A stretch of 64,000 bases of DNA from a phage, in sequence record PZ452583.1; one strand, written 5' to 3'. The translations under genes and the position numbers were made by a program. Position 1 is the stretch's first letter; each line of letters opens with the position of its first letter. The notes under the pieces were generated by a model, which saw only the letters and a list, made by a program, of their open reading frames with translations, did no database searches and was not told the origin of the DNA. Shown here piece by piece: positions 3,970 through 38,602 of the stretch.

Positions 3970-4338
3970 TTAATTACCAATCGTATATTTAGGAACGAGT
4001 TTCCATTCATGTTTTTGTTTAAAAGAAATAACTCGGAAGTTATTAGTTAAATCTTTCATAAAAGTTCTTTGACCAGGAACGATTTCAATCAATCCCCAAT
4101 CTTCTAACAACCATGCAATCGAATCACGACGAACTTCATCTTCTTCTGTCATTTCAACTTGACGACCATCCATACGAAGCATTTCTTTAAAATGAACGAT
4201 ATAGTATAGTCCTTTTTTCTGAAGAATATGACAGGACTGATACAGAACTTTATCTTTATTATTAGCAATTCCCATACGAGTCAAAGTTTCTTTTACTTTC
4301 AGAAAATCTTCAGGTTTTTTAAGAGTAATTTCAATCAT
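3970..4338 (-). CDS. regA: RegA translational repressor
   Basis: ORF track 122 aa (T4 RegA size), N-terminus MIEITLKKPEDFLKVKETL; located between genes 62 and 43 as in T4. Confidence 0.9.
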   Translation of the reverse strand: MIEITLKKPEDFLKVKETLTRMGIANNKDKVLYQSCHILQKKGLYYIVHFKEMLRMDGRQVEMTEEDEVRRDSIAWLLEDWGLIEIVPGQRTFMKDLTNNFRVISFKQKHEWKLVPKYTIGN

Positions 4339-4339
4339 T

Positions 4340-4903
4340 TTACCATTCCAATGCTAGTTTTTTGAGTTGTTTCTGTTCTTTTACGTTCTTAGTCACTTCT
4401 TTCAAAAAATCATCCGTGACTAAACCTTTTAGTTCTTTTAATACTAAAGGAAGTTTTCCATTTTTAGTAAGAATTGATTTATAGTTAATTGCATCATTTG
4501 TATTAACTTGATACCGCTTAGCAATTAACTTAATAATCAATACTTCGGTGGAATCTTCAACTAGTTTTGCCCATTTACCATATCTTTTACCACGAGGAAC
4601 TGCAGCCATTAGATAATTAAAATGAGCTTCATCACTTAAGCCTGATCCAATTAAATTCATAGCATATACAGCTGGCATGCACTCTGGAAATTGTGATAAT
4701 GCATTTTCAACCATGAATTTTGAATAATCTTTTTGAGCAATAGAGCATTTAGTTTTATTATTAATAGCTCCAATTATTTCAAAAAATTCATTTTCAGCTT
4801 TTTCTTTAAAAGTATCAGCAGCAGATTGGACAGCTGTCCAATCTTTAGAATACCAAGCAACTTGATGCTCGTTTAATTGAATATCATCTTCAAATAAGCT
4901 CAT
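4340..4903 (-). CDS. 62: Clamp loader small subunit gp62
   Basis: ORF track 187 aa (T4 gp62 size); position between 44 and regA. Confidence 0.9.
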
Positions 4904-32947: not shown

Positions 32948-33133
32948 TTAAAGCGTATTCACATAAGCTATTAATTCATTTTCTTTCTTATCAAACCGAT
33001 CAGCAAATTCTTCCTGCTGTTCGGGAGATAGCGGGCCGTATTCATCATAAAAGGTGTTTGCTTCTGCATGCTCATCTAGAAGTTCATGGATAAGCTCAAA
33101 CAATTTATCTTTTTGTTCTTTGCTTAGGCTCAC
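32948..33133 (-). CDS. Hypothetical protein
   Basis: ORF track 61 aa, acidic. Confidence 0.5.
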   Translation of the reverse strand: MSLSKEQKDKLFELIHELLDEHAEANTFYDEYGPLSPEQQEEFADRFDKKENELIAYVNTL

Positions 33134-33302
33134 AGTATGTCAATCCCCAAAAGTTTTAAAATGACTCGTTTCTGATTCATAACCGCTACGATTGAATGAC
33201 CGTTGGGGTCTTTTTGACCCGATCCAATTATAAATCCTTTTTGTGCAGAAAGTTCAATCAAAACATCAAGTTCACGTAATAATTGATATTTTAAATCATC
33301 AT

Positions 33303-33509
33303 TCATTTTGGTTTACCTTCTTTAACGAAATCAGGATAAGGATAAAATCCCGAATAAAATCCTTCACCTTTATGATTGATGCATCCTTTATTAGAACAAT
33401 AGCACCAATAATCGAAATCACAAGCCATTTCATCATTACATAAAGCAAAAACAACAGGCCACTTACACTTTTCACAGTGGGCATTTTTAAGAATACTAGT
33501 TTGGCTCAT
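33303..33509 (-). CDS. Hypothetical Cys-rich protein
   Basis: Track ORF 33303..33530; supported start ATG 33509..33507 in an ATGA overlap with the upstream stop; multiple Cys pairs (CEKC, CYC). Confidence 0.45.
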   Translation of the reverse strand: MSQTSILKNAHCEKCKWPVVFALCNDEMACDFDYWCYCSNKGCINHKGEGFYSGFYPYPDFVKEGKPK

Positions 33510-33718
33510 AACCATGTAACCTTTAAGCAATATTCTTCTACATGTTGTTTACGACCTTTCTTATCAATAAAGGTATATTCAACGAATGTTCCAATGTAGT
33601 CTTTATCTACATCATGTGGACTATTAATTGGACATTTAGTACGGCAAATGCGTTCCCATTGACGAATAATTACTGCTTTGTTTTTAGGATCAAACGGATG
33701 CGGGTAATGTACTTTCAT
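33506..33718 (-). CDS. Hypothetical protein
   Basis: ORF track 70 aa. Confidence 0.45.
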   Translation of the reverse strand: MKVHYPHPFDPKNKAVIIRQWERICRTKCPINSPHDVDKDYIGTFVEYTFIDKKGRKQHVEEYCLKVTWL

Positions 33719-34169
33719 AATCCACCACTATTAAATCAATATCAGGAGTAAACATGTCGATTAATTTAGAAACCTTATCCCAATCGCCGCCAGCAATACC
33801 ACAACCTATGCGTGGAATGTAAATTACCGGTTTAAACAAAAGGGTTTCTGCCTGTAGATTTAATTCTATCATGCAGTTTACTAAAGCACCATAATCAAGA
33901 TTAGGACCTGGTTCGTATTGCGTATACAAGTTATAACATATGCCAAAACCATTAGGTTTATGTTTAAAAACAATAGACATATCGCCTAATTTATCACGAG
34001 AACCGTACTCAGTAGTGGTTTTATCTATTTCTAAAATTTTGGGATAGGCTCTTGCTAATTGACCCGCTACACCTGAACCCATAGTATGAAAACAATTGCA
34101 CCCGTGCGCAATAATATTACCTTGAAGAAATAGGGCGACAATATCGCCCTTGATATATTTTACAATCAT
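33690..34169 (-). CDS. Macrodomain-like protein (predicted ADP-ribose binding/hydrolase)
   Basis: ORF track 159 aa; N-terminal KGDIVAL...GNIIAHGCNCFHTMGSGVAGQLA and C-terminal IPRIGCGIAGGDW resemble macrodomain signature regions. Confidence 0.55.
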   Translation of the reverse strand: MIVKYIKGDIVALFLQGNIIAHGCNCFHTMGSGVAGQLARAYPKILEIDKTTTEYGSRDKLGDMSIVFKHKPNGFGICYNLYTQYEPGPNLDYGALVNCMIELNLQAETLLFKPVIYIPRIGCGIAGGDWDKVSKLIDMFTPDIDLIVVDYESTLPASV

Positions 34170-34507
34170 CTAGTACTCAATCCTCGATTATAAGAATCTA
34201 CCAAACGGTCAACCATTGAATGACAAGCGGCTTTATCTTTCTCCTCCGCAACTGAACATTCTAAGGTATTCCACTTTTTAGCATATCGTTTTAACAGTGT
34301 ATCATTTTTGTATCTGCTTGATTTATCTCTTTCTCCGTCTTTATATGCATATATTAATTTCTGCGCAAATTCAGCTTGGCATGCTTTATTTTTCCCGCAA
34401 TAATCCGCTGCAGTACGGTTTACATACTCTCTAATTTCAGTATATGATGTATCTGCTAACGCAGAAAATGAAATTAATCCTATACATAAAACCAAAATTT
34501 TAGTCAT
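34166..34507 (-). CDS. Hypothetical exported protein (signal peptide), T4 vs position
   Basis: ORF track 113 aa; N-terminus MTKILVLCIGLISFSALADTSY is a typical Sec signal peptide. Confidence 0.55.
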   Translation of the reverse strand: MTKILVLCIGLISFSALADTSYTEIREYVNRTAADYCGKNKACQAEFAQKLIYAYKDGERDKSSRYKNDTLLKRYAKKWNTLECSVAEEKDKAACHSMVDRLVDSYNRGLSTR

Positions 34508-35541: not shown

Positions 35542-35571
35542 ATTATACCACAGTCAAGAGGAAAAGTAAAC
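35542..35571 (-). promoter_or_regulatory. T4 early-promoter-like element upstream of regB
   Basis: Minus strand GTTTAC, 18-nt spacer, TATAAT, then GAGGAG and the regB ATG. Confidence 0.5.
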
Positions 35572-35852: not shown

Positions 35853-36118
35853 TAGTATTTTTCCTCTGGTTGGAACACTGCACGACAAGCCCACATACTG
35901 GCTTCTTTGAGTTTCGTTTTAGCAATAGTTAACTGATCGAGGCTTTCAGCATAATTCTTCGCGAGTTCATCATCTTCACAATTATCTAGTGCTTCCCAGA
36001 ATTCATCGTATAAAGCGTCAAAGATAAGTCCTAAACGAACTTCAGCGTCTTTAATAGCATTCACTTTACCGATTTTCTCTTCAGTATGCGGCTTATAACC
36101 TTTAATGTCTTCAATCAT
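35852..36118 (-). CDS. Hypothetical protein
   Basis: Track ORF 35852..36154; supported start ATG 36118..36116 ([15 protein letters not shown]). Confidence 0.5.
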
Positions 36119-36332
36119 ATTTGACTTCCTCACCAGTACATAAATCATATTCAACTAAACGAATAGGTTCATGAATGCCATATCCTTGAACAGAAATTTC
36201 TGTCGTAGGATAAATTCCATCAATATCACCCATATTCCAGGCTTCATTAAATTGCTGTTCGCCTGAATTACTAAACCACTCGGCGAAAGCATTTAGCACA
36301 TCTTTAGAACCTTCAATAATTATCTTTGCCAT
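36111..36332 (-). CDS. Hypothetical protein
   Basis: ORF track 73 aa. Confidence 0.5.
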   Translation of the reverse strand: MAKIIIEGSKDVLNAFAEWFSNSGEQQFNEAWNMGDIDGIYPTTEISVQGYGIHEPIRLVEYDLCTGEEVKYD

Positions 36333-36701: not shown

Positions 36702-37031
36702 TCAATTAGAAAATAAATTTATCCAAGATTGTTCTTTAATTAAAAATGGCTCAGAATCATATGCCATTAAACTTTGGGTGATTAGTCCTTTAAAAGGCCC
36801 ATCAATAAATTCCATGGTAAAATATGGAATTTTATTCATTAGCCGTGCATTAGGAGCAGTACACAAAACTCTGCATCCTTTGAATACGCCTTTTTGTAAT
36901 TTGTATTGCTTGGGATAAAATTCGCTCAAAATGTTATTATTTGCTAAAATTTCAAAATGATTCACCAATTTATTTTTAATAGTTTTTGGCGAAAAATAAA
37001 GATATTCGAAAAGCTGAGTGTCTGTCATCAT
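36702..37031 (-). CDS. Hypothetical protein
   Basis: Track ORF 36702..37082; supported start ATG 37031..37029 ([13 protein letters not shown]). Confidence 0.5.
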
Positions 37032-37624
37032 TGCATTCCGATTACGAAAAACTGTGGACGAGTAATACCACCAATGCAACATTTACTATTGCAGCAGTGT
37101 TGCACAGTTTCAATATGAATATCGTAAATTTTATCCATATCAGGAGATTTAACAGGCTCATCAATTATATACAAAATTCGTGAAAGCGATAAACCTCTGA
37201 ACTTGCTACCTCTATTACCAATAAAACTGCGCACAGAATCAGTAAATAAACGAAAACGTATATCATCATTAGAATAACGCGAAAATTCCTTTTTAATGTT
37301 ATTTGCAGAAATTTTAGCGTAAGCTGAAGTATTAGATAGAACAATAACTGTTCCGCCATCATACAGCCAATTAGCAGCAAAGTTAGTCACAGCAATTGAT
37401 TTACCGGATTGACGTCCACCATCTATACGAAGTGTACAGTACTGTTTAAGTAATTCTTCAAATGGCGGGATATATTCGTTTTTACAAATTTCTTCTACTC
37501 TAGCATCAGAATGGTGTGTAAAAGCATTCATCAGGGATAGATACGGGCCAGTTAAAAATGTTCTCATATTTTCTCTCTTAATTTTTGGGCCATTCCATGG
37601 CACATGAGTTGTCCATTCCTGCAT
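37028..37624 (-). CDS. Predicted P-loop NTPase
   Basis: ORF track 198 aa; Walker A-like GGRQSGKS; start ambiguous (ATG 37624 or 37567). Confidence 0.5.
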   Translation of the reverse strand: MQEWTTHVPWNGPKIKRENMRTFLTGPYLSLMNAFTHHSDARVEEICKNEYIPPFEELLKQYCTLRIDGGRQSGKSIAVTNFAANWLYDGGTVIVLSNTSAYAKISANNIKKEFSRYSNDDIRFRLFTDSVRSFIGNRGSKFRGLSLSRILYIIDEPVKSPDMDKIYDIHIETVQHCCNSKCCIGGITRPQFFVIGMQ

Positions 37625-37702: not shown

Positions 37703-38176
37703 TTATTTGAACGATTTAACGTACTGAATAGAACCCTTACTATTCACAAAGGCAATTTTACCATTTTTATTATACATGGTAGCAGTACGCTGATAACCAT
37801 AGGTTTGTTTACCAGATTGATAACCAACTAATGCAAAATTATCTTCACCCATTTTATTCTGTTTAGCGCGAATGCGTTCATGACCATGTGCCATAAGAAC
37901 CTTAGCATCACCAGTTGCAATGGATCGACGAGTTTTTTCATCTTCAACTGTATTAACAAAGTCGTCAAATGAATCAAATTTAGCATGAGATTTATTATAC
38001 AGTTTTCCATCTACTGCATAATTATATCCTTGTACATCCATCTCAACTTCTGTACCATCATCCAATACAGCAGTGATTTTTTGACCTTTTTTAAATTTCA
38101 AAAGATCAGTAAAAGATTCAGCAATAATTTGAGAATTAATAGCTGCTTCAGTAATAAATTCTTGATATGTTTTCAT
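37703..38176 (-). CDS. Internal-protein-like (capsid-targeting sequence) protein
   Basis: ORF track 157 aa; N-terminus MKTYQEFITEA nearly identical to the T4 IPIII capsid-targeting sequence MKTYQEFIAE, with an I-T-E gp21-type cleavage motif; AAAGGAAA Shine-Dalgarno. Confidence 0.65.
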   Translation of the reverse strand: MKTYQEFITEAAINSQIIAESFTDLLKFKKGQKITAVLDDGTEVEMDVQGYNYAVDGKLYNKSHAKFDSFDDFVNTVEDEKTRRSIATGDAKVLMAHGHERIRAKQNKMGEDNFALVGYQSGKQTYGYQRTATMYNKNGKIAFVNSKGSIQYVKSFK

Positions 38177-38185
38177 GGGTTTCCT

Positions 38186-38602
38186 TTAAATGTAAATATT
38201 TTTACCGTAATACTTATACCAATGTGGTTTCATTAAAATTTTTTCATCAAGTCGTTGTTGACTCAATTTAATAGCTGATTTGCATGGATTATAATCATTT
38301 TTCCATTCTACTGGAATATCGCTGATGTCAGGAACTTCAGTATCTTTTATACTGAACCCGCGTTTTAAGCATTCCGTTATAATGTCTAATTGACGCTTTC
38401 GCAAAAATTCTAACTTATCGTAAAAGAACGTAACATGACCAGAACCTAAAATAAACTCGGAAGATATTTTAAAATCTTTAACGCGCTTACCGTTTGCCAC
38501 ATGCTTACGAACTATACCAAAAACACGCGGCAATTCACGGTATTCTGCGATTAAATGTTGATCAGCAAGTTCAGATACTAAAGTCAAATTAATACGAGTC
38601 AT
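38186..38602 (-). CDS. denV: Endonuclease V (pyrimidine-dimer DNA glycosylase)
   Basis: ORF track 138 aa; N-terminus [29 protein letters not shown] matches T4 endo V as recalled. Confidence 0.92.

Follow-up and report, generated by a model that had tools for sequence, protein, structure and literature searches.

Locus and gene order

The DNA analysed here is a stretch of 64,000 nucleotides from a phage (sequence record PZ452583.1), referred to below in its entirety as the window. It carries on the minus strand an open reading frame (ORF) for a macrodomain protein of 159 amino acids, which starts with ATG and runs from 34169 to 33690 in the ORF list. The gene is the positional ortholog of tk.4 of phage T4, also named adfM. 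An earlier note on this DNA had singled out a 159-residue protein with two hallmark macrodomain motifs, and both, AHGCNCFHTMGSGVAGQ and PRIGCGIAGGDW, were found in the translation of this ORF. Coordinates of these and all other features are collected in Table 1.

In annotated relatives the gene order is tk, small ORFs, the macrodomain gene, vs, vs.1 (SLT domain) and regB, and the strand is the same throughout. The local order in the window (tk.3, macrodomain gene, vs, vs.1, regB) matches that of T4, with tightly packed genes on the same strand. When T4 proteins were searched against the window by using tblastn, tk.4 was placed between tk.3 and vs; vs.1 and regB were 100 and 99% identical, respectively. 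By its position, the macrodomain gene thus corresponds to T4 tk.4. Over 2.1 kb around the gene, the DNA is 99% identical to many Tequatrovirus genomes. The N-terminus MIVKYIKGD is common to the window protein, T4 Tk.4 and T2 Tk.4, and the DNA of the vs/macrodomain gene junction is identical in the window, T4 and T2; the ATGA overlap at this junction suggests translational coupling inside a polycistronic unit. No ADP-ribosyltransferase gene was found beside the macrodomain gene, whose neighbours are vs and tk.3, and this fits an orphan eraser of adenosine diphosphate ribose (ADP-ribose).

The gene had also been described as belonging to the early region. Its position on the T4 map, in the tk-vs-regB block, agrees with this, and a promoter scan added little: 22 consensus sites were found in comparison with 23.6 expected in shuffled sequence, that is, no enrichment. 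A sigma-70-like site with an extended -10 element lies upstream of regB.

Table 1. Positions of the macrodomain gene, its motifs and further features in the window.
Feature	Position	Strand	Basis or remarks
Macrodomain coding sequence, positional ortholog of T4 tk.4/adfM	33690-34169	minus	ORF list, Pfam Macro, synteny, 57% amino acid identity
vs stop/macrodomain start, ATGA overlap	34166-34169	minus	sequence read directly
Motif 1, AHGCNCFHTMGSGVAGQ	34059-34109	minus	translation; His22, Asn25 and Gly31-x-Gly33 loop
NLYTQY segment with Gln84	33915-33932	minus	translation; hidden Markov model (HMM) and L-INS-i alignments
Motif 2, PRIGCGIAGGDW	33780-33815	minus	second glycine-rich (diphosphate-binding) loop; translation, alignments
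Allele-replacement cassette	33700-34140	no strand	the one part of the tk.3-regB block divergent from T4
tblastn match, T4 tk.3	33509-33718	minus	96% identity
tblastn match, T4 tk.4	33705-34169	minus	57% identity
tblastn match, T4 vs	34169-34507	minus	97% identity
Overlap of macrodomain gene 3' end with tk.3 start	33690-33718		29 bases, other frame
Hairpin AGGGCGATATTGTCGCCCT	34132-34150		perfect, 8 bp, GC-rich; codons 7-13 of the macrodomain gene
Second replaced block	32948-33530		downstream of tk.3
ORF similar to T4 Tk.2	32948-33133		52% identity
Small ORF	33130-33306		58 amino acids
Small Cys-rich ORF	33303-33530		70-75 amino acids
Sigma-70-like site, extended -10	35542-35570		upstream of regB
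vs.5 ortholog	36111-36332		73 amino acids (58 in T4)
vs.8 ortholog	37028-37624		198 amino acids (219 in T4)
ORF between vs.8 and denV	37703-38176		157 amino acids
denV	38186-38602		78% identical to T4

Domain assignment and fold prediction

The window protein has the fold and the motifs of a macrodomain. It matched the Pfam Macro profile (PF01661) with 33.1 bits, above the gathering score of 22 (E=6e-8; residues 22-136, profile positions 2-117 of 118), as well as PHROG 335 (E=1.8e-71), and 794 homologs were retrieved at E<=1e-3 from a large protein collection; the similarity thus goes well beyond what chance would give. An AlphaFold2 model was built from 59 homologs (mean predicted local distance difference test score, 93.6; predicted template modelling score, 0.88). 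It displays the alternating strand-helix pattern of macrodomains and a three-layer alpha/beta/alpha fold, with the two glycine-rich loops lining the ADP-ribose cleft. The profile match and the confident fold prediction, both of which the earlier note had proposed as checks, bear out its assignment of the protein to the macrodomains.

A Foldseek comparison with PDB placed complexes of TARG1 with ADP-ribose at the top (E 3e-10; template modelling score 0.73-0.82), followed by BT1257, Poa1p and DarG. In the table of structural neighbours, the scores were 18.2 for BT1257, 17.6 for Mycobacterium tuberculosis DarG, 17.3 for Poa1p, 17.0 for T. africanus DarTG and 16.8 for TARG1, and 13.7 for the next macrodomain class (coronavirus nsp3). 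The closest neighbours were all ALC1-like (TARG1/DarG/SCO6735/Poa1p), and the MacroD, viral and PARG classes were clearly apart. Judged from the model, the window protein is a macrodomain of the ALC1-like class; a unifying activity has been described for this class, namely the reversal of ADP-ribosylation on thymidine (PMC9411070).

A strict DarG homolog was considered and rejected. The NCBIfam DarG model NF048014 gave 27.7 bits against a cut-off of 250, and only the macrodomain part of its 338 positions was matched. In DarG (PDB 5M3I, 5M31 and 7OMU), the catalytic Lys is part of FPTKKHWR, the position of His22 is taken by Asn and the loop reads PPLGxGNGGL; a C-terminal domain binds DarT, and the darT gene lies next to that of DarG. 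The window gene encodes a single domain of 159 residues and shares none of these features.

Active site

Residue roles were assigned from alignments. An HMM alignment and an L-INS-i alignment (66 sequences) were used, which agreed mutually as well as with the published alignment based on structures; with MAFFT at default settings, the Gln segment of BT1257 was misplaced, and that alignment was set aside. Residue numbers of SCO6735 were verified on the sequence of 5E3B. Invariance was counted in a sample of 59 members of the family, which reaches down to 40% identity and includes T4 Tk.4.

His22, Asn25, Gly33 and Gln84 of the window protein are invariant (59/59), and GDI occupies residues 8-10. 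In motif 1, the aligned residues are His24 and Asn27 in SCO6735, His23 and Ser30 in Poa1p, and Asn23 in the AdfM of phage PhiKZ. The column of Gln84 holds the catalytic Lys in TARG1 (K84), T. aquaticus DarG (K80) and PhiKZ gp104 (FPTK motif), and a Gln in Streptomyces coelicolor SCO6735 (Gln85) and Bacteroides BT1257. Motif 2 has the form found in SCO6735 and BT1257 (PRIGCGLAGGxW), unlike that of DarG. Human TARG1/OARD1, the top structural match, shares the conserved His (His22 corresponds to TARG1 His32 and Poa1p His23), but its catalytic dyad Lys84/Asp125 is replaced by Gln84/Ala126 in the window protein.

The active site thus resembles that of SCO6735 (PDB 5E3B) and BT1257 (2FG1/2AFC), in that Gln84, His22 and Asn25 align with Gln85, His24 and Asn27 of SCO6735, although these are cellular and not phage proteins, with approximately 27% identity. 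SCO6735 is without the Lys/Asp residues, yet its hydrolysis of thymidine-linked ADP-ribose on DNA is faster than that of DarG or TARG1; it rescues Escherichia coli from DarT, its activity is abolished by the Q85A exchange, and a water-mediated mechanism has been proposed (PMC9411070). Because His22, Asn25 and Gln84 align with this lysine-less hydrolase, the chemistry of the Tk.4 family is most likely of the lysine-independent Gln type, as in SCO6735, and not Lys-dependent, as in DarG and TARG1.

Proposed anti-DarT function and alternatives

DarTG blocks phages through ADP-ribosylation of DNA, and the layered countermeasures of T-even phages are AdfA, AdfN and AdfM (Tk.4). An anti-DarT role of Tk.4/AdfM is already published for the T4 ortholog. 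In a T4 transposon-sequencing screen on a host with DarTG2, tk.4 was the single significant hit, and its transposon reads were depleted only when DarTG2 was present; a clean knockout of tk.4 made T4 sensitive to DarTG2, and the authors gave the gene its new name adfM, for anti-DarT factor Macrodomain (bioRxiv 10.1101/2025.11.20.689424). T2 and T4 had been found to be still resistant to DarTG2 without AdfN and AdfA, and a further factor had been predicted (PMC11825919). An "A1pp phosphatase motif" has been noted in T4 tk.4 since the early T4 annotations (PMC1524935). Recognition of the ORF as the AdfM locus explains this long-unassigned "A1pp phosphatase" gene and leads to the prediction of DarTG2 resistance in the window phage.

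A second phage protein named AdfM, PhiKZ gp104, strips DarT2-made ADP-ribose from a TNTC oligonucleotide in vitro and neutralises DarT2 toxicity (PMC13309987, Cell Reports 2026). Like the window protein, it is an orphan phage macrodomain, and its Asn23 aligns with Asn25; it counters DarTG2. It differs in being DarG-like, with its Lys in FPTKDNWRNPS, in its identity of only about 20% to the window protein and in its import into the phage nucleus. With Lys in one site and Gln in the other, and at this level of identity, the T4-type and PhiKZ AdfM proteins belong to different branches of the class and were probably recruited independently. The present analysis adds the Gln active site of T-even AdfM, by which the two published AdfM proteins would be different enzymes, and points to the locus as a hotspot of allele swapping.

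On the strength of orthology, T4 genetics, the SCO6735-like site, the precedent of PhiKZ gp104 and the orphan context, we consider it likely that the window protein is an orphan antitoxin-like macrodomain hydrolase, the window allele of T4 Tk.4/AdfM, that erases DarT2-made thymidine ADP-ribose from phage DNA. Expression from the tk-regB transcription block would supply the protein ahead of replication, and it would bind the ADP-ribose put by host DarT2 on thymidine in single-stranded phage DNA (TNTC motifs). Hydrolysis of the bond would restore replicable DNA and render the phage resistant to DarTG2. Catalysis would be water-mediated and lysine-independent, with Gln positioning the substrate alongside His and Asn, as in SCO6735. 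Reversal of host DarT ADP-ribosylation had been suggested in the earlier note and is supported by the DarTG2 sensitivity of the T4 knockout; we infer the enzymatic action on DNA even for the T4 protein, together with its Gln-type mechanism and the same for the window allele at 57% identity.

Several points weigh against this assignment. Removal of ADP-ribose from DNA by T4 AdfM was proposed ("it seems likely") from its likeness to the M. tuberculosis DarG structure, so that the mechanism given in the T4 preprint is drawn from structural similarity (bioRxiv 10.1101/2025.11.20.689424). The DarTG2 phenotype pertains to the T4 allele only, and 43% of positions in the window allele depart from the T4/T2 protein that was tested; T2 and T4, the two phages reported to be resistant to DarTG2, both have the T4-type protein, unlike the window. 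The mobile loop that follows the Gln segment is 5-6 residues longer in SCO6735 and BT1257, and the Tk.4 family has the short form; a loop about five residues longer than that of TARG1 and DarG is held to be a mark of the SCO6735/BT1257 subclass. Lys34 and Lys89 of SCO6735, which were mutated as part of an electropositive DNA-binding surface in the SCO6735 study, are lacking in the Tk.4 family (Ser32 and Gly88 in the window protein). Catalytically dead SCO6735 still inhibits DarT by binding, and protection therefore need not be purely enzymatic (PMC9411070). Finally, yeast Poa1p, an ADP-ribose-1''-phosphate phosphatase, is among the closest characterised relatives, and a small-molecule substrate is possible.

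The relation to Poa1p leads to a first alternative, in which the protein is a small-molecule hydrolase: a Poa1p-like ADP-ribose-1''-phosphate phosphatase, as the classical "A1pp phosphatase" label has it, an O-acetyl-ADP-ribose deacetylase or an enzyme that degrades an immune signal derived from nicotinamide adenine dinucleotide. Any DarTG2 effect would then be secondary or due to an additional activity. His22 and Thr29, both conserved, fall on His23 and Ser30 of Poa1p, and the alignment of the C-terminal halves is poor (9.9 bits); Poa1p differs in being a phosphatase that acts on a free metabolite. For the T4 ortholog, the sole phenotype reported concerns DarTG2 specifically, a DNA modifier, and the His/Asn/Gln signature matches that of SCO6735, which prefers DNA substrates. 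We know of no pathway in T4-like phages that makes ADP-ribose-1''-phosphate. A small-molecule hydrolase is therefore judged improbable, although the two activities are mutually compatible.

The inhibition of DarT by dead enzymes bears on a second alternative, which we hold to be very improbable, namely that protection is achieved chiefly by binding, through stoichiometric inhibition of DarT2 or shielding of the modified DNA with little or no turnover. SCO6735 Q85A, DarG K80A and TARG1 K84A, all catalytically dead, inhibit DarT in vitro, SCO6735 most strongly (PMC9411070), and the sharp allele replacement described below is the pattern expected of a protein that contacts a variable host protein. 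The window protein, however, is a single macrodomain of 159 residues without the C-terminal DarT-binding domain of DarG, and the family-invariant residues are located in the catalytic loops and not on a variable surface, and this points to catalysis as the trait under selection.

T-even phages encode three ADP-ribosyltransferases. The earlier note had raised the possibility that the macrodomain tunes the phage's own ADP-ribosylation by Alt, ModA and ModB, and no support was obtained for it. In a wider form, this third alternative comprises editing of the phage's own programme (Alt, ModA, ModB, RNAylation) or removal of ADP-ribose from RNA, for example to counter mRNA ADP-ribosylation by CmdTAC; it is the least likely of the three and scarcely probable at all. 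Enzymes of the TARG1 class do accept several types of substrate, and SCO6735 and TARG1 hydrolyse Asp/Glu-linked and thymidine-linked ADP-ribose (PMC9411070), but the target of Alt and Mod is arginine, and macrodomains of this class have not been reported to act on that linkage. The T4 tk.4 transposon reads were reduced specifically with DarTG2. As regards the CmdTAC variant, this system is described as a robust defence against T-even phages (PMC11618068), although T4 carries tk.4.

Bacterial relatives

A Tk.4-like gene with approximately 40% identity was found on the chromosome of Pelagimonas phthalicica (locus L004, positions 4001-4459), with no adjacent DarT-like toxin, as in the case of SCO6735. 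Free-standing cellular erasers of the Tk.4-like type therefore occur beyond Actinobacteria and Bacteroidetes. A bacterial origin in a DarT operon was considered and rejected: the Pelagimonas homolog (P0089) stands alone among unrelated genes, and a second homolog (P0094) occurs in phage-like contigs beside genes for ribonucleotide reductase and dUTPase. No toxin-antitoxin context was found for the bacterial relatives at the two loci examined.

Allele replacement and distribution

The window protein and T4 Tk.4 share locus, strand, start, the invariant His22, Asn25 and Gln84 and the glycine loops, and each is a single macrodomain (159 and 155 amino acids, respectively). Their amino acid identity is nevertheless 57%, despite neighbours at 96-100%; T2 Tk.4 is identical to that of T4. 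Identity to T4 Tk.4 drops from approximately 77% in residues 1-60 to approximately 34% in residues 121-155, with the catalytic loops kept. When window and T4 DNA were compared in blocks of 30 bases, 26-30 bases per block were identical in vs and in the opening 30 bases of the macrodomain gene, 9-26 between about 34140 and 33700, and again 28-30 in tk.3. From this sharp drop between conserved flanks, the macrodomain locus is a recombinational allele cassette and a hotspot of swapping.

The Tk.4 family gave matches in 2774 of the 50,697 phage records. The window-type allele (at least 90% identity) is the most frequent in the phage database, with 313 records, RB10 among them, and is present with approximately 90% DNA identity in Dhakavirus genomes. 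The T4-type allele (at least 90% identity) accounts for 224 records, and 159 records carry a third class with 80-90% identity to T4. A DarTG2-resistant model phage with the window-type allele was looked for as indirect evidence; T2 was rejected, as its protein is of the T4 type (100% identical).

A more far-reaching proposal, which we regard as rather unlikely, combines two elements: that Tk.4-type AdfM is a lysine-less, Gln-dependent DNA hydrolase recruited independently, and that the allele classes are functionally distinct and maintained by an arms race rather than by neutral drift. If so, the window, T4 and third classes could differ in the range of DarT2 family members they act against, in sensitivity to host countermeasures or in substrate linkage.

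The conserved 5' flank of the cassette contains a perfect hairpin, AGGGCGATATTGTCGCCCT, followed by a T-rich run. It was flagged on both strands by a terminator scan and is identical in T4 and T2; it may be a mere by-product of the KGDIVAL codons, an RNA structure or a recombination flank. At the other end, the macrodomain gene runs 29 bases into the start of tk.3, which is read in another frame, whereas the overlap in T4 is 4 bases; the C-terminal tail of the window allele is four residues longer than that of T4 and modelled with low confidence.

Downstream of tk.3, a second replaced block adjoins the macrodomain cassette. T4 tk.1 and tk.2 are not conserved here: one ORF shows only 52% identity to T4 Tk.2, and nothing in the window matches Tk.1. 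Two further small ORFs occupy the tk.1/tk.2 space, of which the Cys-rich one resembles a zinc ribbon; an NCBIfam search of the small ORFs in this block gave no hit.

Other differences from T4

Further departures from T4 were noted in the window. The orthologs of vs.5 and vs.8 gave split tblastn matches in different frames, and their ends therefore differ from T4. An ORF of 157 amino acids separates vs.8 from denV, a site at which T4 lacks a gene, and its N-terminus is weakly similar (33%) to T4 internal protein IPII; to judge by this similarity, it may encode a variant internal (capsid-injected) protein. The adjoining denV is 78% identical to T4, with neighbours at 94-99%.
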